Shown here piece by piece: positions 4,995 to 60,838 of a stretch of DNA of 64,000 nt. The stretch is from Escherichia phage LYE-01. The notes under the pieces were generated by a model that searched no databases, was not told the origin of the DNA, and saw nothing but the letters and a program-made list of their open reading frames with translations. Where the stretch lies: sequence record PQ303785.1, one strand, 5' to 3'. Positions within the stretch are counted from its first letter, which is position 1. Every line of letters begins with the position of its first letter. The translations under genes and the position numbers were made by a program.

Positions 4995-5135
4995 ATGATA
5001 TTTCTTGGATATGTGATACTTTTTCTGGCGTTTTATTTGTTCACCAGAGCGTGTTGGATTGGGTTCTTTAGTACTCCAGATGGATTTATTTCAATAATTT
5101 TATTTTGCATTTCAATGACGGTTCTTGATATATGA
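4995..5135 (+). CDS. hypothetical small membrane protein (46 aa)
   Basis: Hydrophobic ORF; ATG overlaps an extended -10-like TGATATAAT, so expression is uncertain. Confidence 0.25.
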   Translation: MIFLGYVILFLAFYLFTRACWIGFFSTPDGFISIILFCISMTVLDI

Positions 5136-5755
5136 AAAAATATATAACTTATTTAACAATATATAGTGGAGATAAACTTCCTCCTTTTTATATTGGATCT
5201 ACATCTTTAGACAGGCATTTAGCCGGATATCATGGATCAGTTTTATCTAAAAAGTATAAGAAAATTTATAATGAAGAACTTTCAAATAACCCACATTTAT
5301 TTGATTCATGCATTTTAGATGAATTTGATACACGCGAAGAAGCTATTAAATGCGAGCTATATTATCAACGTTTGCATGATGCGGTTAAAAATCCATTATT
5401 CTTTAATATGTCATATGCTGCTCCAAAAGGTTCATTTGGAAGAGATATTAAAGGACAAAATCATCCATTATATGGTTCTCATAATTGTAAAGGAAACATA
5501 CATTCACATGACCCATTAACAGGAAAATCTGCCTTTTTACCGTATATTCCAGAAGGTTATGTAAAAGGAAGGTCAAATAAATTTAAAGCTTCATCACATA
5601 ATAAAGGTAAAAAATGGTATAATAACGGAGTTAAGCAAATGTTATGTCATGAACCTCCTGGTCCTGAATGGACAAAAGGAAAAATTAAAGAACTAGTTTC
5701 AAAAGCAGCTAAATTAGGATGGAAAAGACACCATGAAAATACTAAACTTGGGTGA
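5132..5755 (+). CDS. GIY-YIG family endonuclease, Seg-like homing endonuclease candidate (207 aa)
   Basis: N-terminus YITYLTIYSGDKLPPFYIGSTS gives GIY and YIG motifs about 11 residues apart; basic C-terminal region (NKGKKWYNNG); overlaps gene 47 start by 23 nt. Confidence 0.6.
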   Translation: MKKYITYLTIYSGDKLPPFYIGSTSLDRHLAGYHGSVLSKKYKKIYNEELSNNPHLFDSCILDEFDTREEAIKCELYYQRLHDAVKNPLFFNMSYAAPKGSFGRDIKGQNHPLYGSHNCKGNIHSHDPLTGKSAFLPYIPEGYVKGRSNKFKASSHNKGKKWYNNGVKQMLCHEPPGPEWTKGKIKELVSKAAKLGWKRHHENTKLG

Positions 5756-6752
5756 TTGGCATTTAGGCGTTAAAGCTGATGATGAATGGATTCGCGGTAT
5801 TCAAATTGATGGAATTAAACAAGCGATAGAATATTCTAAGAAAAATGGAATTACTGTATGGATTCAATACGGTGATATTTTTGATGTACGAAAAGCGATC
5901 ACGCATAAAACTATGGAGTTTGCTCGTGAAATAGTTCAAATGCTTGATGACGTTGGAATCACATTACATACTATTGTAGGAAATCACGATCTCCACTATA
6001 AAAATGTAATGCATCCAAATGCTTCTACTGAGCTTTTGGCTAAATATCCTAATGTTAAAGTATATGATAAGCCTACTACAGTAGATTTTGACGGATGCTT
6101 GATTGATTTAATTCCTTGGATGTGTGAAGAAAATACTGGTGAAATTCTTGAACACATCAAAACTTCATCTGCTTCTTTTTGTGTCGGTCACTGGGAGCTG
6201 AATGGATTTTATTTTTATAAAGGAATGAAATCTCACGGTCTTGAACCTGATTTCCTTAAGACTTATAAAGAAGTGTGGTCTGGTCACTTCCATACTATCT
6301 CTGAGGCTGCTAACGTCAGATATATTGGGACACCATGGACACTAACTGCAGGTGACGAGAATGACCCTCGCGGGTTCTGGATGTTTGATACAGAAACAGA
6401 ACGAATGGAATTTATTCCAAACAACACTACCTGGCATCGTCGAATTCAATATCCATTTAAGGGAAAAATTGACTATAAAGATTTTACAAATCTATCAGTA
6501 CGTGTTATAGTAACTGAGGTAGACAAAAATCTGACGAAGTTCGAATCTGAACTAGAAAAAGTTGTGCATTCATTACGAGTTGTGTCAAAGATTGATAACT
6601 CTGTCGAGTCAGATGATAGCGAAGAGGTTGAAGTTCAATCTCTTCAGACGTTGATGGAAGAATACATTAATGCAATTCCAGACATCACTGATTCTGACCG
6701 CGAAGCACTTATTCAATATGCAAATCAGTTATATGTAGAGGCAACACAATGA
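5733..6752 (+). CDS. 47: gp47 recombination nuclease subunit (Mre11-like, 339 aa)
   Basis: Phosphoesterase motifs (GDWH, GNHD, GHFH); size and synteny as T4 gp47. Confidence 0.9.
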   Translation: MKILNLGDWHLGVKADDEWIRGIQIDGIKQAIEYSKKNGITVWIQYGDIFDVRKAITHKTMEFAREIVQMLDDVGITLHTIVGNHDLHYKNVMHPNASTELLAKYPNVKVYDKPTTVDFDGCLIDLIPWMCEENTGEILEHIKTSSASFCVGHWELNGFYFYKGMKSHGLEPDFLKTYKEVWSGHFHTISEAANVRYIGTPWTLTAGDENDPRGFWMFDTETERMEFIPNNTTWHRRIQYPFKGKIDYKDFTNLSVRVIVTEVDKNLTKFESELEKVVHSLRVVSKIDNSVESDDSEEVEVQSLQTLMEEYINAIPDITDSDREALIQYANQLYVEATQ

Positions 6753-7012
6753 CTTTTGATGAATTTAAAAATGTTATGATGAGTCAGCATTTTGAATGCG
6801 AAGTAAAAGATGATATTGGGCATAAAGAAATTATTGAATACTGGTTTGAACCACTAGAGGTTGAAGATAATTGTATTAAAAAGGTTACGGTCTGCACTGA
6901 CTGGGCTGTATCTTTTAACTTCAACATTTTAGATAATGACACACCTAAATCAGTACAAGATATGGCTGTATCTTGTATTAAGGATGCATACTGTGAAGTT
7001 TTCGACATTTGA
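6749..7012 (+). CDS. hypothetical protein (87 aa)
   Basis: ATG overlaps gene 47 stop (ATGA). Confidence 0.4.
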   Translation: MTFDEFKNVMMSQHFECEVKDDIGHKEIIEYWFEPLEVEDNCIKKVTVCTDWAVSFNFNILDNDTPKSVQDMAVSCIKDAYCEVFDI

Positions 7013-7199
7013 CATTAACGATGAATTCATAGCAAATATTGATTACACCGAAGAAGATTCTAGATATGTTGGAATAATTTATATCACATCAAAAGCAGCA
7101 CAAGGTGTTGTTTGCATGGCTGAATTTGATGAATACTTTTTAGATTATGATGATATGATAGAATGGTCTAAAAGATACATTAAAAGGAATCTTTTGTGA
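6993..7199 (+). CDS. hypothetical protein (GTG 6993 chosen; frame open from 6936)
   Basis: N-terminus VKFSTFDINDEF resembles the N-terminus of the downstream HNH ORF. Confidence 0.3.
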   Translation: MKFSTFDINDEFIANIDYTEEDSRYVGIIYITSKAAQGVVCMAEFDEYFLDYDDMIEWSKRYIKRNLL

Positions 7200-8050
7200 A
7201 GAATTTTAAACTTGACATTAATGATGAATTTTTAATAAAGGAATTAGTTGAAAAATTAGCGTTGAGTGAAGAAGACGCCAAGTCTTACATTAATTTTATT
7301 TCTATGAATTCAACTGTTAAAACTCCAGGTAAAACGGAAGCACACCACGTGCTTCCTAAATCAATATTTCCTGAATATTTAAAATCTACATGGAATTTAG
7401 TTAATTTAAGTCATTTTAATCATTTTAAAGCACACTTCTTATTAGCAAAAGGTAAAAATGGAAAAATGCTAAATGCTTTAAATAGAATGATGTCAGGAAA
7501 AACATATAAAAATTTATCTTTAGCCGAAGTTGATTTAATAGCTGCTGAATATAGTTTTATAAAACAAGATGTAAGTGACACAATATCAAAAAGGCTTCAA
7601 CAGTATTATTCAAATCCGCAAAATAGAAATGCTGCTAGAGAAAGGGCATTAAAATATTTTTCAGTAGCAAAAAATAGGAAAGATAACAAAGAAAGATTAA
7701 ATAATTTTAAAACAAAACAAAAAATTTCAATGGCTTCAAGGGAATGGTTTAATAACGAAGAAAATAAAATTAAACACCAAAAGGCTGTTCGTGCTGCTTT
7801 ATCAAAACCTGAATATAAAATAGCTATATCAAATTCAGTAGCTGCTAGTTGGAAAAATCCGGAGATTAGAAAAGCTCATATAGCATCTAGACGAAAAGGC
7901 TATCATTGGGATAATAAAGATAAATTGTATGAATTGTGGATATCATATAATCGTCCTAAACATGTGATGTTTAGGAAAATGTTAGTTAAGAATGGATATC
8001 CAATAGAGGCTTCATTACAGGCTTTAGTTAAAGAATTTTCTTCATTGTGA
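7196..8050 (+). CDS. HNH homing endonuclease candidate (Mob-like, 284 aa, GTG start)
   Basis: HNH motif EAHHVLPKS...NLVNLSHFNHFKAH; C-terminal repeated basic modules; AT/Lys-rich composition; sits between 47 and 46. Confidence 0.65.
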   Translation: MKNFKLDINDEFLIKELVEKLALSEEDAKSYINFISMNSTVKTPGKTEAHHVLPKSIFPEYLKSTWNLVNLSHFNHFKAHFLLAKGKNGKMLNALNRMMSGKTYKNLSLAEVDLIAAEYSFIKQDVSDTISKRLQQYYSNPQNRNAARERALKYFSVAKNRKDNKERLNNFKTKQKISMASREWFNNEENKIKHQKAVRAALSKPEYKIAISNSVAASWKNPEIRKAHIASRRKGYHWDNKDKLYELWISYNRPKHVMFRKMLVKNGYPIEASLQALVKEFSSL

Positions 8051-8065
8051 ACAATTGGATACAAA

Positions 8066-9748
8066 ATGAAATCATTTAAACTTAATAGAGTAAAATATAA
8101 AAATATAATGTCAGTTGGTCAAAATGGAGTTGACATTCAATTAGATAAGGTTCAAAAAACTCTTATTACTGGACGAAATGGCGGTGGTAAGTCTACTATG
8201 TTAGAAGCCATCACATTTGGGCTTTTTGGCAAGCCATTTCGTGATGTAAAGAAAGGTCAATTAATAAACAGCACAAATAAGAAAGAACTTTTAGTTGAAC
8301 TGTGGATGGAATATGATGAGAAAAAGTACTATATCAAAAGAGGACAAAAACCAAACGTTTTCGAAATCACCGTTAACGGTACACGTCTTAATGAATCTGC
8401 CAGCAGTAAAGATTTCCAAGCAGAATTTGAACAGCTTATCGGAATGTCATATGCCAGTTTCAAGCAGATTGTTGTCCTTGGTACAGCAGGGTATACCCCT
8501 TTCATGGGTTTGTCGACCCCTGCGCGAAGAAAGCTTGTGGAAGACCTGCTTGAGGTAGGAACATTAGCTGAAATGGATAAGCTTAATAAAGCACTAATAC
8601 GTGAATTAAATTCACAAAACCAAGTGCTTGATGTTAAAAAAGATAGTATTATCCAGCAAATTAAAATATATAATGATAACGTTGAACGTCAGAAAAAATT
8701 AACTGGTGATAACCTTACTCGTCTGCAGAATATGTATGATGATTTGGCGAAAGAAGCTAGAACGTTAAAATCGGAAATAGAAGAAGCTAATGAAAGATTA
8801 GTTAATATTGTTTTGGATGAAGACCCGACTGATGCATTTAATAAAATCGGTCAAGAAGCATTTTTAATTAAATCAAAAATTGACTCGTATAATAAAGTCA
8901 TTAATATGTATCACGAAGGTGGATTATGTCCAACCTGTTTGTCACAATTAAGTTCCGGTGATAAAGTTGTTTCTAAAATTAAAGATAAAGTTTCTGAATG
9001 CACGCATTCGTTTGAACAGCTTTCAACACATCGTGATAATTTAAAAGTTCTCGTTGATGAATACCGAGATAATATTAAAACCCAGCAGACGTTGGCGAAT
9101 GATATTCGCAATAAAAAGCAATCCTTAATCACGACGATAGATAAAGCTAAAAAGGTTAAAGCGGCTATAGAAAAAGCATCATCCGAGTTTATTGACCATG
9201 CTGATGAAATAGCACTGCTTCAAGAAGAACTTGATAAAATTGTTAAGACAAAAACTAATTTAGTAATGGAAAAATACCACAGAGGAATTTTGACTGACAT
9301 GCTCAAAGATTCTGGTATTAAAGGTGCTATTATTAAAAAGTACATTCCATTATTTAATAAGCAGATTAACCATTATCTTAAAATAATGGAAGCGGATTAT
9401 GTGTTTACATTAGATGAAGAATTTAATGAGACAATTAAATCCCGTGGTCGCGAAGATTTTAGTTATGCTTCATTCAGTGAAGGTGAAAAAGCACGAATTG
9501 ATATTGCTCTTTTATTTACTTGGCGTGATATTGCTTCTATCGTATCTGGTGTTAGTATTAGTACATTAATTCTTGATGAAGTGTTTGATGGGTCATTTGA
9601 TGCCGAAGGTATTAAAGGTGTAGCGAATATTATAAATTCAATGAAAAATACTAATGTTTTTATAATTTCGCATAAAGACCACGACCCGCAAGAATATGGT
9701 CAGCATCTTCAAATGAAGAAAGTTGGTCGGTTTACTGTAATGGTTTAA
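8066..9748 (+). CDS. 46: gp46 recombination nuclease ATPase subunit (Rad50/SbcC-like, 560 aa)
   Basis: Walker A GRNGGGKST, Zn-hook CPTC, coiled-coil middle, C-terminal LILDE Walker B; 560 aa as T4 gp46. Confidence 0.9.
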   Translation: MKSFKLNRVKYKNIMSVGQNGVDIQLDKVQKTLITGRNGGGKSTMLEAITFGLFGKPFRDVKKGQLINSTNKKELLVELWMEYDEKKYYIKRGQKPNVFEITVNGTRLNESASSKDFQAEFEQLIGMSYASFKQIVVLGTAGYTPFMGLSTPARRKLVEDLLEVGTLAEMDKLNKALIRELNSQNQVLDVKKDSIIQQIKIYNDNVERQKKLTGDNLTRLQNMYDDLAKEARTLKSEIEEANERLVNIVLDEDPTDAFNKIGQEAFLIKSKIDSYNKVINMYHEGGLCPTCLSQLSSGDKVVSKIKDKVSECTHSFEQLSTHRDNLKVLVDEYRDNIKTQQTLANDIRNKKQSLITTIDKAKKVKAAIEKASSEFIDHADEIALLQEELDKIVKTKTNLVMEKYHRGILTDMLKDSGIKGAIIKKYIPLFNKQINHYLKIMEADYVFTLDEEFNETIKSRGREDFSYASFSEGEKARIDIALLFTWRDIASIVSGVSISTLILDEVFDGSFDAEGIKGVANIINSMKNTNVFIISHKDHDPQEYGQHLQMKKVGRFTVMV

Positions 9749-56968: not shown

Positions 56969-59900
56969 TTATTCAACCCATTCAAATTTAACCGTTTTAT
57001 TCACTGGGTCAGGAATAATGCGAACATTACCAATTCGTAAGAAATCACGAATAGTAAGATTCCCCATTATAGCATTATCAGATGGTAAAGCACCGATATC
57101 AGATGGCTGAGGAGGGTTACCTCCATCAAATACCTGAACAAAGCTTGACCAAGAATTTTTGGTTTTCTGCCATGTACGCGTCCAGCGAGTGGTGCGCGCT
57201 TCTGGGGTCGTTGGATAAGTAATCCAATCTTGGTAAAGCGAATCGAGTGTGTTACCAAATTGAGTCAGCGTACCAGGAGATTTAACCTCTTCACCGCGTT
57301 CTAAGTATGGAAGCCCAGTCACTTCATTAGTTTTTTCAACCATTTTAAAATAACCCGGGAACTGGTTATAAGTGGCTGAATCATTAATATCGATTGACCA
57401 GAATCCTACAGTATCAGATGTTGGCGCCCGGGTATATAAATCAGAGGTTTTAGTACCCTGAGAACGAATTCTCGAGTTAACAGTTAAACCACCTGAAGTT
57501 ATAGTAGCACCTTTGGCAATGATTAAGCTTTCACCAATTGTAACCTGACCAGATTGATTATTAATTGATAATGGACGTAATCCATTAAACCCACCAGTCT
57601 GATCACCAGATGCAGTAAGCATAAAATAGGTGTTAGCACCATCATTACGAATAAAGAATCCGTAATCACCATTTATTGCTCTAAAAGCATTCGACGATTT
57701 ACTGATAAATTCGCCATTAGCAGTAACTGAACTACCGAATGTTGCAACGCCATTCGCATTCAATGTTCCTGAAGCATTCACATTTATCGGTGTTACTGTA
57801 CCATTGATATTAAATGTTATATTACCAGCTTTATTGCGCTGAGAATAAAAGTGACTAGACGTTTCATCACTAACTTCAAATACAGTAGAACGCGTTGTGT
57901 CTGATTCACCACTAAATTGATTTCCCCACACTTTGACTGTCATCGTTTGAGCCGGGTTCGTTCCAGTTTGAGGTCCTTTCTCAAAAATCAGACGAGTTGC
58001 TGTTCCAGTATTAGAAATGGTTAGTGTACTATTTGCTGAAACTGATCCACCGAACGTAGCAGTACTAGATGATACAAGAGGGGCACTCAGATTCGTTTGT
58101 TGGGTTAAGGTTAGTGAACCATTAACCGTTTGTGCAATATCCCTACGAATGAACTGAGATGAATCTAGACCATCCAGTAAATTACTATCTACAGCTTTTG
58201 CTTTTAACGGCAAATAATTTGCTAATACACGGTTTAATTCGTATGGCGATACTGCATAACTATTTTTCTCGTACAATTCTAATGACTGTGTTGAACCAAC
58301 TGTATCATTACCAACGAATGTAATTGAACCAGATGAAGTTTTAACAAAACCTCTTACCAGAGTAGTAGCTGCCCAAGTAGGTTCACTCTGCACAATCCAT
58401 TTTAAATTTTTTGGAGATACAGCAGTATTTGCTGACGTTCCAGCTACAGTTTCAGACTGAGTTGCAACTTTAATAACGCCTTCCTGTGCTTCAGTAGATT
58501 TAGTACCTAAAAGCTTTTTAGGAGTTATTAAAACATTATCCAATGTTCCTGCAGCAGCTTCAACTTGCGTAGCCACACGAAGTGTACCACGCTGTGTCTC
58601 ATTTGCTTCAAGAATATTAAGGGTATAATGGTCCCAGAGAGTTCCTGATTCAACTAATCCAGATAGAGCAACAACAGAAGTACGATCAGTACTATTAAAT
58701 CTGGTTTTAATTTTTAATGGTGTAGAGATACGAGTATCGTCGACGCCTGCGTCGAATTCAACTTGCGTAGCAATTTCAGCTATACCACTTAAACTTTCAG
58801 TTGCTTTACGGCCATTTAAAGTTTTAGGAGTGACTGCACGAGTATAATCAGTTCCTGTATTAACTTCACTTTGCGTAGCAATTTCAATTAAACCAATTCT
58901 TGCATCAGTTGATGTCTTTTTATGTAACGTTTCTGGCGTTACAACCGCATTTGCCCATCCTTCTTGACTCTGTCCAGCAATTACTTCACTTTCAACTGCT
59001 AAAATTACTGCACCTTGTTGGGTTGGAGTAGCTTTATACTGATCCAAAGCTTTAGGCGAAACAACTAAATTATTAGTGTTTTTATTATAAACATTTGTAC
59101 CATTTAATTCACGACTAGAAGCTGCAGTAGCTCCTGCAGTAGATACAAAAGTTACAATACCAGATAATGATTCAGAACCTTGACGAGCTTGAAGCTTTTT
59201 AGGAGTGATGATTGTAGTATCATCAGTACCTGCATTAGTTTCTTGCTGTGTAGCAATTTCAGCAACACCTCTACGAGTTTCTGTAGCAGTTCTTTCATTC
59301 AGCTTTTTAGGAGTGACGATAATATCATCAGCAAAAGAGAATGTAGTATCCTGGTTCACTTGAGCAGTGGTTGCTATTCTTGCGATACCTCTACGAGTTT
59401 CTGTAGCAGTACGGTTAGCTAATGTTTCTGGGGTAATTGCTAATTCTTTTTGCGGAGAATTTTCTAAATCAGCATTTGCTTGAGCTTGTGTAGCTAAAGC
59501 AATTACGCCTAATCTTGCTCTAGTAGAATCATTTAAAGAATCAACTCTTTCAACTGTTGGCACGTTTTGCTGCACCACCCAGTATTTTCCATCAGAATCT
59601 TCTATATAAGCAAGCTGTAAAACTGGAACATAATTAGTTTCGCCGTTAAAAACTAATTCTTGAACAGTCACCCATTCAGCTTCAGGCGGATACTCTGAAC
59701 GTTTTGGGAATTGCAACAATTGAACTGAAGAAGCAATTTTATCTTCACCGGCAGCTTTGATTTTAACTGTTTGGCCTTTTCTCATGTAATTCATGGAAAT
59801 TTTAACAGTATCACCAATGGAAATATCGGTTGGAAGTTGAAGTTCAATTGTTTGGGTTGTTCCGTTATTCGCTCCAAATACCATGACTTCTTCATTTGGA

Positions 59901-60838
59901 CGAATACTAGAATTAGTTGTTATAATACGTAAACGTGCTTTACTATCCCCGTCAAACAATCTCCACAATTTTTCATTATCATCATACATCAAGAAACCAT
60001 CAATCGATGTACGGCCTTCAATGGAATGAGTTCCAACTTCTTGCACTGAAGTTGTTTCATCGTATGTAGTAACAATTGTATGATAAAGTGGATTTAATTT
60101 GTCTAAATCGACGAAATTAATAATATCGCCATGATTAGCAAATCTCGGAAGTTTAATATTAATCGCCGCGGCTGAAGTAAATCTGCGCACGATAAAATCG
60201 TTAGATTGCGCCTGATAAAGACTTGCCGGTGTTACGACTACAGCTTCTCTGCTATAATCAGCAACATACATTTGCCACAGACGATTACTAAAAATTAAAA
60301 CTATCTGCGATTTTGGATGAGTCATTAGTACTGAACGTACTTGTTCGCCTCTGAAGTTTACAATACTTTGCACTGGAGCTACAATTAAAACCTGGTTAAC
60401 ACCAGGTTTTCCTCCAATGTCTTGGAGAACGATAGTATCTCCATCAATTGGGGAAGATGGTAAAGTAAATGTAATGTCATTACCAGCTGCAGTATCAACT
60501 GAAATTGATTCGCCTGACTTTAATTGATAAGGTCCTGATGAAACAGTTGTCCAATTAGCATCAGTACGTAATGCTCTCCAACGCACGCTATTAAAAGCTC
60601 CTGCTGGTTTTGGAATATCATTTATAGCAGCCCAAAAGCGGTTATCATAAATGATTACAAAATCTTTTAAATATCCACGAGTTGGATCGTATTGTTGAAC
60701 TGTGTTTTCTTGAATTAAGTAATCAACGTTAACACCGTCAGTTCCTACGGTACGATCAGCTAAAGCTACGTTGATTATTTTATCGCCACCTGCGTCCAGA
60801 CCGTCTTCTGCTCTGAACTTTCTTTTAATCTCGGCCAT
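56969..60838 (-). CDS. 34: gp34 long tail fiber proximal subunit (1289 aa)
   Basis: Begins MAEIKRKFRAEDGLDAGGDKIINVALADRTVGTDGVNVDYLIQ; 1289 aa; matches T4 gp34. Confidence 0.9.
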   Translation of the reverse strand: MAEIKRKFRAEDGLDAGGDKIINVALADRTVGTDGVNVDYLIQENTVQQYDPTRGYLKDFVIIYDNRFWAAINDIPKPAGAFNSVRWRALRTDANWTTVSSGPYQLKSGESISVDTAAGNDITFTLPSSPIDGDTIVLQDIGGKPGVNQVLIVAPVQSIVNFRGEQVRSVLMTHPKSQIVLIFSNRLWQMYVADYSREAVVVTPASLYQAQSNDFIVRRFTSAAAINIKLPRFANHGDIINFVDLDKLNPLYHTIVTTYDETTSVQEVGTHSIEGRTSIDGFLMYDDNEKLWRLFDGDSKARLRIITTNSSIRPNEEVMVFGANNGTTQTIELQLPTDISIGDTVKISMNYMRKGQTVKIKAAGEDKIASSVQLLQFPKRSEYPPEAEWVTVQELVFNGETNYVPVLQLAYIEDSDGKYWVVQQNVPTVERVDSLNDSTRARLGVIALATQAQANADLENSPQKELAITPETLANRTATETRRGIARIATTAQVNQDTTFSFADDIIVTPKKLNERTATETRRGVAEIATQQETNAGTDDTTIITPKKLQARQGSESLSGIVTFVSTAGATAASSRELNGTNVYNKNTNNLVVSPKALDQYKATPTQQGAVILAVESEVIAGQSQEGWANAVVTPETLHKKTSTDARIGLIEIATQSEVNTGTDYTRAVTPKTLNGRKATESLSGIAEIATQVEFDAGVDDTRISTPLKIKTRFNSTDRTSVVALSGLVESGTLWDHYTLNILEANETQRGTLRVATQVEAAAGTLDNVLITPKKLLGTKSTEAQEGVIKVATQSETVAGTSANTAVSPKNLKWIVQSEPTWAATTLVRGFVKTSSGSITFVGNDTVGSTQSLELYEKNSYAVSPYELNRVLANYLPLKAKAVDSNLLDGLDSSQFIRRDIAQTVNGSLTLTQQTNLSAPLVSSSTATFGGSVSANSTLTISNTGTATRLIFEKGPQTGTNPAQTMTVKVWGNQFSGESDTTRSTVFEVSDETSSHFYSQRNKAGNITFNINGTVTPINVNASGTLNANGVATFGSSVTANGEFISKSSNAFRAINGDYGFFIRNDGANTYFMLTASGDQTGGFNGLRPLSINNQSGQVTIGESLIIAKGATITSGGLTVNSRIRSQGTKTSDLYTRAPTSDTVGFWSIDINDSATYNQFPGYFKMVEKTNEVTGLPYLERGEEVKSPGTLTQFGNTLDSLYQDWITYPTTPEARTTRWTRTWQKTKNSWSSFVQVFDGGNPPQPSDIGALPSDNAIMGNLTIRDFLRIGNVRIIPDPVNKTVKFEWVE
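58400..59550 (-). repeat. tandem ~40-codon fiber repeats within gene 34
   Basis: About six repeats of ETRRGIAxIATQxExNxGTDDTxIxTPKKL in the product; recurring GCGTAGCAATTTCAGC-like DNA blocks; bounds approximate. Confidence 0.6.

Follow-up and report, generated by a model that had tools for sequence, protein, structure and literature searches.

The 64-kilobase (kb) stretch of Escherichia phage LYE-01 analyzed here (sequence record PQ303785.1; 64,000 nucleotides, hereafter the window) is that of a T-even phage (Tequatrovirus), with 99% identity to many Escherichia and Shigella phages, and includes the 47-46 recombination-nuclease block. The gene order in this block is 47, 46.2, 46.1, HNH, 46, all on the + strand, where HNH stands for an open reading frame (ORF) encoding a predicted free-standing, Mob-like HNH homing endonuclease. 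An imperfect direct repeat links the 5′ ends of 46.1 and of the HNH ORF. Comparison of sequences with related phages shows the 5′ end of the HNH ORF as a three-part mosaic, composed of gene 46 sequence, then 46.1 sequence, then HNH sequence. On balance, we read the repeat as a recombination scar at the left junction of an HNH gene that is seated in the start of gene 46.

A Direct Repeat at the Starts of 46.1 and the HNH Gene

A repeat finder returned one repeat family, pairing 6992–7036 with 7195–7239 (45 nucleotides (nt), 76% identity, ungapped, 203 nt apart). Both copies lie in register with the GTG starts at 6993 (46.1) and 7196 (HNH), and encode MKFSTFDINDEFIAN and MKNFKLDINDEFLIK. The start of 46.1 at GTG 6993 was confirmed, as it is the same in the T4 annotation, is replaced by an ATG at that place in KIT03, and has an AAGGA 9 nt upstream. 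Within the window the core 19-mer TTGACATTAAyGATGAATT is identical at 18 of 19 positions (7009–7027 vs. 7212–7230), whereas the copy in the HNH ORF matches 46.1 of T4 at 19/19 and has an exact 20-mer in common with 46.1 of RB68. An initial annotation of the window had described an imperfect repeat at two adjacent gene starts, with (F/L)DINDEF at both N-termini. The repeat was borne out by the repeat finder and by simulations, and the peptide was found at codons 6–12 of both ORFs, as FDINDEF in 46.1 and LDINDEF in HNH; the coordinates given were right within a few bases, with end coordinates that were slightly too long.

The repeat is real, and chance is excluded as its source. Three places in the 64-kb window show a match of at least 18/19 at a spacing of 30–400 nt, the other two being inside a 1289-amino acid (aa) ORF. 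The expectation for such matches in first-order Markov simulations is a mean of 0.05 places per 64 kb, and a 45-mer with at least 34 matches occurred 0 times in 40 simulations. Chance similarity between two AT-rich gene starts with the same favored codons, which the initial annotation had itself named as a possible source of error, could draw on the favored codons GAT-GAA-TTT and on the GTGAAG start that gene 46 also has in HNH-less phages. Against it stand the simulated expectations for a 19–20-mer at 203 nt and for the 45-nt match, and the presence of the second copy only together with HNH; we give this explanation, already refuted, next to no weight. The single copy that the annotation had proposed to look for in relatives lacking the HNH gene was indeed found: the 19-mer is present once in T4 and in five further HNH-less loci and twice in HNH carriers such as the window and RB68, the second 46.1-like copy being confined to HNH-carrying phages (71 records).

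The features of the locus are as follows.

5132–5755, + strand: GIY-YIG ORF (seg-like)
5733–6752, + strand: gene 47
6749–7012, + strand: gene 46.2
6993–7199, + strand: gene 46.1, 68 aa, GTG start (Pfam DUF5487, E-value 2e-49; phrog_2327; coordinates as in the T4 annotation)
6992–7036, + strand: repeat copy 1, the 5′ end of 46.1 (core 19-mer TTGACATTAACGATGAATT at 7009–7027, codons 6–12, FDINDEF)
7176–7213, + strand: captured gene 46 translation start, with an AAGGAA ribosome site located in the 3′ end of 46.1, GTG and codons 1–6 (MKNFKL); 38/38 vs. T4
7195–7239, + strand: repeat copy 2, the 5′ end of the HNH ORF (core 19-mer TTGACATTAATGATGAATT at 7212–7230, codons 6–12, LDINDEF)
7196–8050, + strand: HNH (Mob-like) free-standing homing endonuclease ORF, 284 aa, GTG start, intact (phrog_655)
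7214–8083, + strand: 870-base pair (bp) block without T4 counterpart, comprising the 46.1-derived patch, the HNH body, a 15-nt spacer and the rebuilt gene 46 start
8066–8083, + strand: rebuilt, recoded gene 46 start ATGAAATCATTTAAACTT (MKSFKL), the right-hand duplicate; 13/18 vs. 7196–7213
8066–9748, + strand: gene 46, ATG start, SbcC/Rad50-like recombination nuclease subunit, the target of the insertion
8084–8130, + strand: HNH-linked allele of gene 46 codons 7–22 (…KYKNIMSVGQNGV), a candidate immune homing site or co-conversion tract

The Insertion Duplicated the Start of Gene 46

T4 is without HNH at this place, and the stop of its 46.1 overlaps the start of gene 46 (ttttGTGAagaattttaaactt/aatagag; ...aaaaggaatcttttGTGAagaattttaaactt/aatagagtaaaatat). 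From −20 to +18 of the HNH ORF the window is identical to this 46.1/46 junction at 38 of 38 positions, with divergence after ...AAACTT. The HNH ORF therefore uses the ribosome site, the GTG and the first six codons (MKNFKL) of gene 46. It is without a start of its own, and is coupled to the TGA stop of 46.1, with which its start overlaps as GTGA. The T4 sequence picks up again at 8084 (AATAGAGTAAAATAT), and directly before this point lies the new gene 46 start ATGAAATCATTTAAACTT (8066–8083), which follows the HNH stop after the 15-nt spacer.

When the window and RB68 were compared with T4, the block absent from T4 was 7214–8083, and its 870 bp equal the distance from the HNH start to the gene 46 start (870 nt). 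At either flank of the block lies an 18-nt version of the gene 46 start, and the two match imperfectly (7196–7213 vs. 8066–8083; 13/18, including the exact 9-mer TTTAAACTT); the block boundary may slide within this common 9-mer. Over its first 15 nt, the new start does not differ from that of RB69 gene 46, which suggests that the cassette imported the opening codons of gene 46 from a foreign source.

The duplication created by the insertion is the pair of gene 46 starts (7196–7213 and 8066–8083), and not the pair of 46.1 and HNH starts that the initial annotation had taken for a gene start duplicated by insertion of the endonuclease gene. That proposal was right in linking the repeat to the insertion and in implicating a gene start, but the start that was duplicated is that of gene 46. 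In the HNH copy, the 18 nt at 7196–7213 (GTGAAGAATTTTAAACTT) are the original gene 46 start and fall within the 38/38 match to T4, so they are present in phages without HNH. For annotation purposes, the first 12 residues of this 'homing endonuclease' are non-endonuclease sequence.

The Second Repeat Copy Contains a Patch of 46.1 Sequence

Nucleotides 1–18 of the HNH copy, the gene 46 sequence, match the start of 46.1 at 12/18, and this likeness is already present in T4. Nucleotides 17–36 are a patch of 46.1 (codons 6/7–12): nt 19–38 of the HNH ORF match T4-type 46.1 at 18–19 of 20 positions, vs. 4 of 20 for gene 46. From approximately nt 37 the sequence is that of the HNH family, as LIKELVEKL... 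aligns with ILKAAFPQWEG of SEA1 and ILKTSFPSWEG of F2. The 19–20-nt core is the sole true extra copy of 46.1 sequence, and a separate event of its own is needed to explain it.

The motif within the patch is 46.1's own, as the N-terminus of the 46.1 family has the form F-[DNS]-[IL]-x-D-[EG]-[FY] in three genera: FDINDEF, FNLGDEF or FNLDDEF in T-evens, FSIGDGY in RB69 and FNLGNGW in S16. The HNH relatives at the 47/46 locus are without the motif (SEA1 MIDAETILK; F2 MTKTDYE, then TQIYKILK). The tripeptide D-E-F (GATGAATT) occurs near the N-terminus of three consecutive ORFs, namely 46.2 (MTFDEF; 6749–6775), 46.1 (7018–7030) and HNH (7221–7233). The two copies of the repeat drift independently, with GAT for GAC in the HNH copy of T2 and AAC for AAT in the 46.1 copy of the window and SHFML-11, and this fits a scar better than a maintained element.

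Several other relationships were considered and rejected. Paralogy of 46.2 and 46.1 is unsupported (no BLASTP match for the pair in the window, E-value 0.08 with 46.1 of S16). The 'MDIN' of an HNH ORF in Kha5h, a candidate for an HNH-native motif, is actually what the final 11 nt of gene 56 (ATGGATATTAA) encode in a different frame. Descent of 46.1 from a decayed HNH, or as a domain-sharing or tandem paralogue, was dismissed as well, given an hhalign profile–profile probability of 0.1% and a DNA similarity that stops after approximately 45 nt.

Gene 46 Alleles Are Linked to the Presence of HNH

Codons 7–22 of gene 46 occur in HNH-less T-evens as allele B (RYQNIMSVGGNP, as in the RB69 protein; approximately 345 records, with examples at positions 2721–2770 of loci L009–L012) or as allele A (KYKNIMSVGQNG, as in T4; approximately 85 records). 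The HNH-carrying T-evens that were examined have an A-like allele, and the HNH-linked allele differs from the commonest HNH-less allele at 14 positions in approximately 47 nt. Changes at K/S12 and Q19 set HNH carriers apart in three genera (T-evens, F2 vs. RB69, and SEA1 vs. S16/STML-198). Such a pattern would be expected if the endonuclease recognizes the 5′ part of gene 46 and the immune allele is co-converted, which makes this segment a candidate homing site. On this reading, T4 itself looks like an emptied site that has retained the HNH-linked, presumably immune gene 46 allele.

The Start of Gene 46 as a Recurrent Insertion Site

HNH homologues with 42–44% identity are found directly upstream of gene 46 in two other genera, Mosigvirus and Gelderlandvirus. 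In Mosigvirus F2 the HNH gene stands in place of 46.1, with an interval of 1801 nt vs. 1190 nt in HNH-less relatives. Its first 22 nt, ATGACGAAGACTGATTATGAAA (MTKTDYE), are those of the RB69 46.1 start, with divergence afterwards; on this alignment, F2 is a present-day in-frame fusion of the HNH family to the first codons of 46.1. In STML-198 (Gelderlandvirus; L017 680–720) gene 47 is directly followed by gene 46 (aaaactcGTGAAAACATTTAAG; GTGAAAACATTTAAG), while in S16 (L016 688–900) the same GTGAAA opens a 46.1 homologue that is followed by a rebuilt gene 46 start, ATGAAAACATTTAAG. S16 and STML-198 therefore differ by an insertion/deletion of 46.1 itself, the position of which coincides exactly with the start of gene 46. 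Although the 46.1 of S16 is annotated from a later ATG, its frame is open from the GTG overlapping the stop of gene 47 onward.

In SEA1 the HNH gene directly follows gene 47. Together with that of the window, the layouts of F2, STML-198, S16 and SEA1 therefore indicate that the site just past the gene 46 start codon has been used repeatedly, in three genera. Each incoming ORF takes the resident start, and at the 3′ end of the ORF gene 46 is given a new one. The 'recombination hotspot' put forward in the initial annotation holds in this broad sense of a gene 46 start that is reused as an insertion site; for the 19-mer itself we found no evidence of such a role.

The same arrangement is present at gene 47 of the window. 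Here the original start codon of gene 47, with an ATGA overlap with the 47.1 stop as in T4, has become that of the GIY-YIG ORF, and the 3′ end of this ORF contains a rebuilt gene 47 start, ATGAAAATACTAAACTTG (5733–5760), with four synonymous changes in codons 3–6 compared to T4 (ATGAAAATTTTAAATTTA). As the start-capture layout is the same at 47 and 46, both nuclease subunit genes have endonuclease genes in their starts.

The HNH ORF of Kha5h (L006 2501–3337), which is unannotated and has 30% identity, is located between gene 56 and soc. This ORF and T4 segF (GIY-YIG; L024 1271–1281) both start at ATGGATATTAA inside the end of gene 56, and one start-codon socket therefore serves two unrelated endonuclease families.

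Possible Origin of the 46.1 Patch

For the origin of the scar we favor an inferred two-step pathway, at roughly even odds with respect to the alternative of a conversion patch. In the first step, HNH would have arrived in the T-even lineage, its right side recombining within gene 46 and its left side joining 46.1 at the short D-E-F (GATGAATT) microhomology. The product would be a 46.1(codons 1–12)::HNH fusion that has lost the 46.1 body, as in F2, with the junction TTTCGACATTTGACATTAATGATGAATTTTTAATAAAGG. In the second step, during mixed infection with a genome that has an intact 46.1, an end broken within the first codons of gene 46 (...tGTGAAGAATTTTAAACTT) would pair with the fusion's 46.1 start (...tGTGAAGTTTTCGACATTT), which is similar, and then be extended; the two starts, which are in register, agree at 12/18 positions and both end in TT. 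The resulting genome would have an intact 46.1, followed by gene 46 codons 1–6, then 46.1 codons 7–12, then HNH. This pathway would account for the same register of the two copies, the joint at the common TT and the intact 46.1. F2 is a precedent for the first step, and capture of a start with a rebuilt start downstream recurs elsewhere (SEA1, gene 47 of the window, and Kha5h/segF).

Several results weigh against this pathway. The T-even phage that it predicts, with a 46.1(1–12)::HNH fusion and without the 46.1 body, was not found. Using the chimeric peptide as a tblastn query, none of the 71 records reached an identity of at least 99%, and the matches listed begin at residue 6. When a synthetic DNA of the fusion was used, the best 30 of the 70 full-coverage matches were all in two pieces, spanning 601 nt. 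All 71 HNH-carrying records have L, not F, at junction residue 6, and the MKNFKL start is present in 14/14 of the N-terminus-containing members listed for the protein cluster at 90% identity. No HNH relative at 60–95% identity was found that could reveal the native N-terminus, and the exact 46.1/HNH joint is therefore inferred. Furthermore, the crossover of the second step would have to fall in a 2-nt match after several mismatches, which is possible, and a short conversion patch could yield the same sequence. In metagenomic data, an exact 25-mer from the HNH 5′ end had no match in IMG/VR or JGI metagenomes, and none of the seven 46.1 loci found in IMG/VR had HNH.

Short-patch gene conversion is the main rival. 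According to this explanation, HNH would have inserted after gene 46 codon 6 with its own N-terminal codons, and approximately 20 nt would later have been copied from the 46.1 start 203 nt upstream, guided by the GTGAAG starts and a native D-x-E-[TF]. Both gene starts are in register and already similar in T4 (12/18), the HNH of SEA1 has D-A-E-T at the equivalent place that might have initiated pairing, the similarity tails off step by step toward the 3′ side (GAATTT.TA..AAA), and no fusion intermediate is known. Yet conversion presupposes an earlier DNA homology that is not demonstrable, the two copies do not co-vary in the present population, and the F2/RB69 pair shows that direct fusion of the HNH family to the 46.1 5′ end happens; overall we consider conversion rather unlikely, though worth serious attention. 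A transfer in the reverse direction, by which the 5′ end of T4-type 46.1 acquired a motif native to the HNH cassette from a resident HNH, appears improbable. T4 would then carry the footprint of a lost HNH, and the HNH-linked gene 46 allele that it has without HNH does suggest a former HNH. Codons 3–9 of T4-type 46.1 (KFSTFDIN) are moreover derived with respect to the MKTFEFNL(G/D) type, which is nearer to S16/RB69, and the HNH of SEA1 begins with ATGATTGAC, which has TTGAC at the junction in common. On the other hand, the 46.1 proteins of three genera have kept D-E-F and F-x-[IL]-x-D, which HNH relatives lack, the T4-type 19-mer is also present in HNH-less phages with the non-HNH gene 46 allele (L009–L012), and the 'DIN' of the Kha5h HNH belongs, in another frame, to the end of gene 56.

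A working cis element would be a different kind of explanation altogether, in which the 19-mer serves as an endonuclease binding site or operator, a second homing site, or a promoter. The 19-mer opens with a perfect −35 hexamer (TTGACA). The operator bound by I-TevI looks like the homing site of that enzyme. Operators of this type in the endonuclease genes of T4 have been reviewed and offer a precedent (Edgell et al., 2010; PMC2988022). No matching −10 is found at the right spacing: in a scan for sigma-70 promoters, TTGACA (7010, 7213) was absent from the ten promoter-like sites, which are no more than shuffles give, and no −10 is present at 16–18 nt. Both copies and the rebuilt start of gene 46 gave neither an Rfam family nor an unusual or significant RNA fold, and there was no terminator support at either repeat copy. 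In addition, HNH-carrying genomes keep both copies uncut and drifting, and the HNH-linked polymorphism is located in gene 46 codons 7–22 and not in the 19-mer. We consider such an element highly improbable. The repeat most likely does nothing today; as a direct repeat of 19–20 nt it could, rarely, delete 46.1.

Family Membership, Distribution and Decay of the HNH Gene

The HNH ORF matches phrog_655 'homing endonuclease' with an E-value of 8e-45 over residues 1–282, and H50, H51, N67, H76 and H80 (an HH...N...H motif) are invariant in an alignment of nine homologues. By tblastn, T4 MobD has 30% identity to the ORF; no match was obtained in Pfam-A, and no relative by sequence in PDB. HNH is present in 71 records, vs. 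an uninterrupted 46.1/46 junction in approximately 433 T-even records, and has one fixed position with exact boundaries compared to T4. In GenBank the gene is annotated as 'homing endonuclease' or 'mobD'. It is intact in the window, T6, SHFML-11 and KIT03 and frameshifted in RB68/RB51, T2 and G2133, with RB68 having one A fewer in the A-run at window positions 7717–7722. The frameshifted copies represent the usual decay phase of homing elements.

In Ac3 (OK040907; L020 501–1420) the HNH ORF and the gene 46 start are synonymously recoded throughout (GTTAAAAACTTCAAACTGGACATCAACGATGAATTCCTG...), with a normal 46.1 upstream; this looks like engineered or codon-optimized DNA rather than natural divergence. 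A GC-rich hairpin in the window, GGAAGCAC-ACCAC-GTGCTTCC (7336–7356), lies over the codons of the catalytic EAHHVLP segment of HNH, and was terminator-like in the scan on the minus strand only. The other short-range direct repeats comparable to that of 46.1 and HNH are located at 58746–59400, inside the minus-strand ORF 56969–60838, with spacings of 108, 120 and 375 nt. These are probably internal repeats of the protein, as the length of this 1289-aa ORF fits that of the T4 proximal long tail fibre protein gp34.

One 'other HNH' each has been reported in T2, T6 and RB51 (Petrov et al., 2010; PMC2993671), which is probably the gene described here. The 46.1/46 locus is unmentioned in both T4 reviews (PMC2988022; PMC2993671), and in the searchable T4-phage literature we found no description of the three-part junction mosaic or of the recoded replacement gene 46 start. 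What is new are the details of the junction; the element itself is of a known kind, the free-standing HNH (Mob-like) genes of T4-type phages.

Implications and Comparison With Known Systems

The locus provides base-pair detail on how a selfish endonuclease gene settled beside an essential recombination gene: it is translated from the host gene's own ribosome site and start codon, and brings along a recoded start for the host gene to use instead. On the favored pathway, the 46.1 patch preserves a trace of where the element sat before. Evidence of this kind is rare, and is relevant to the way in which free-standing endonuclease genes come to occupy new positions. Such behavior is expected for T4-type phages, so the value of the observation is in the detail and not in the principle.

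More tentatively, the scar may record a hop of HNH from the start of 46.1 to the start of gene 46 by microhomology-primed repair, with coupled starts acting as general sockets and 46.1 having entered in like manner. The hop is suggested by the first codons of two different resident genes that HNH carries in series. The notion of sockets is based on the recurrence of the same layout, which is seen in the window at gene 47, in three genera at gene 46, and also where gene 56 ends. If true, translationally coupled starts would be sockets for start-less endonuclease genes.

The short direct repeats that bracket the block (7196–7213 and 8066–8083) resemble the target-site duplications of transposons. 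A duplication of that type was rejected, as the flanks match at only 13/18, there is no transposase (the sole ORF is HNH) and no terminal inverted repeats were reported. In contrast to such duplications, the flanks in the window represent a local and an RB69-like allele of one gene start, and derive from homologous or microhomologous repair and not from staggered cuts.

The HNH gene closely resembles the free-standing endonuclease genes of T4 (mobA-E, segA-G, hef and segH; 'intronless homing'). Like these, it is an HNH-motif ORF between conserved genes, present or absent among close relatives at one position, with pseudogenes in T2 and RB68 and a linked cluster of substitutions in the neighboring target gene. 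Of the twelve free-standing endonuclease ORFs of T4, five share bases with the gene before them, and coupled translation is probable for ORFs that overlap in this way (Edgell et al., 2010; PMC2988022); the HNH ORF of the window overlaps the upstream ORF too, so its translation is coupled in the same way. It differs from them in that its cleavage and homing are predicted, and in the three-part mosaic of its 5′ end. With the HNH genes of F2 and its relatives and of SEA1/Melville it has in common the protein family, the position adjoining gene 46, a borrowed start codon and a 3′ end that carries or overlaps the gene 46 start. Whereas the HNH of F2 has taken the place of 46.1 except for the first 7 codons, to which it is fused, and that of SEA1 directly follows gene 47, the T-even version keeps an intact 46.1 and carries gene 46 codons 1–6 plus 46.1 codons 7–12.

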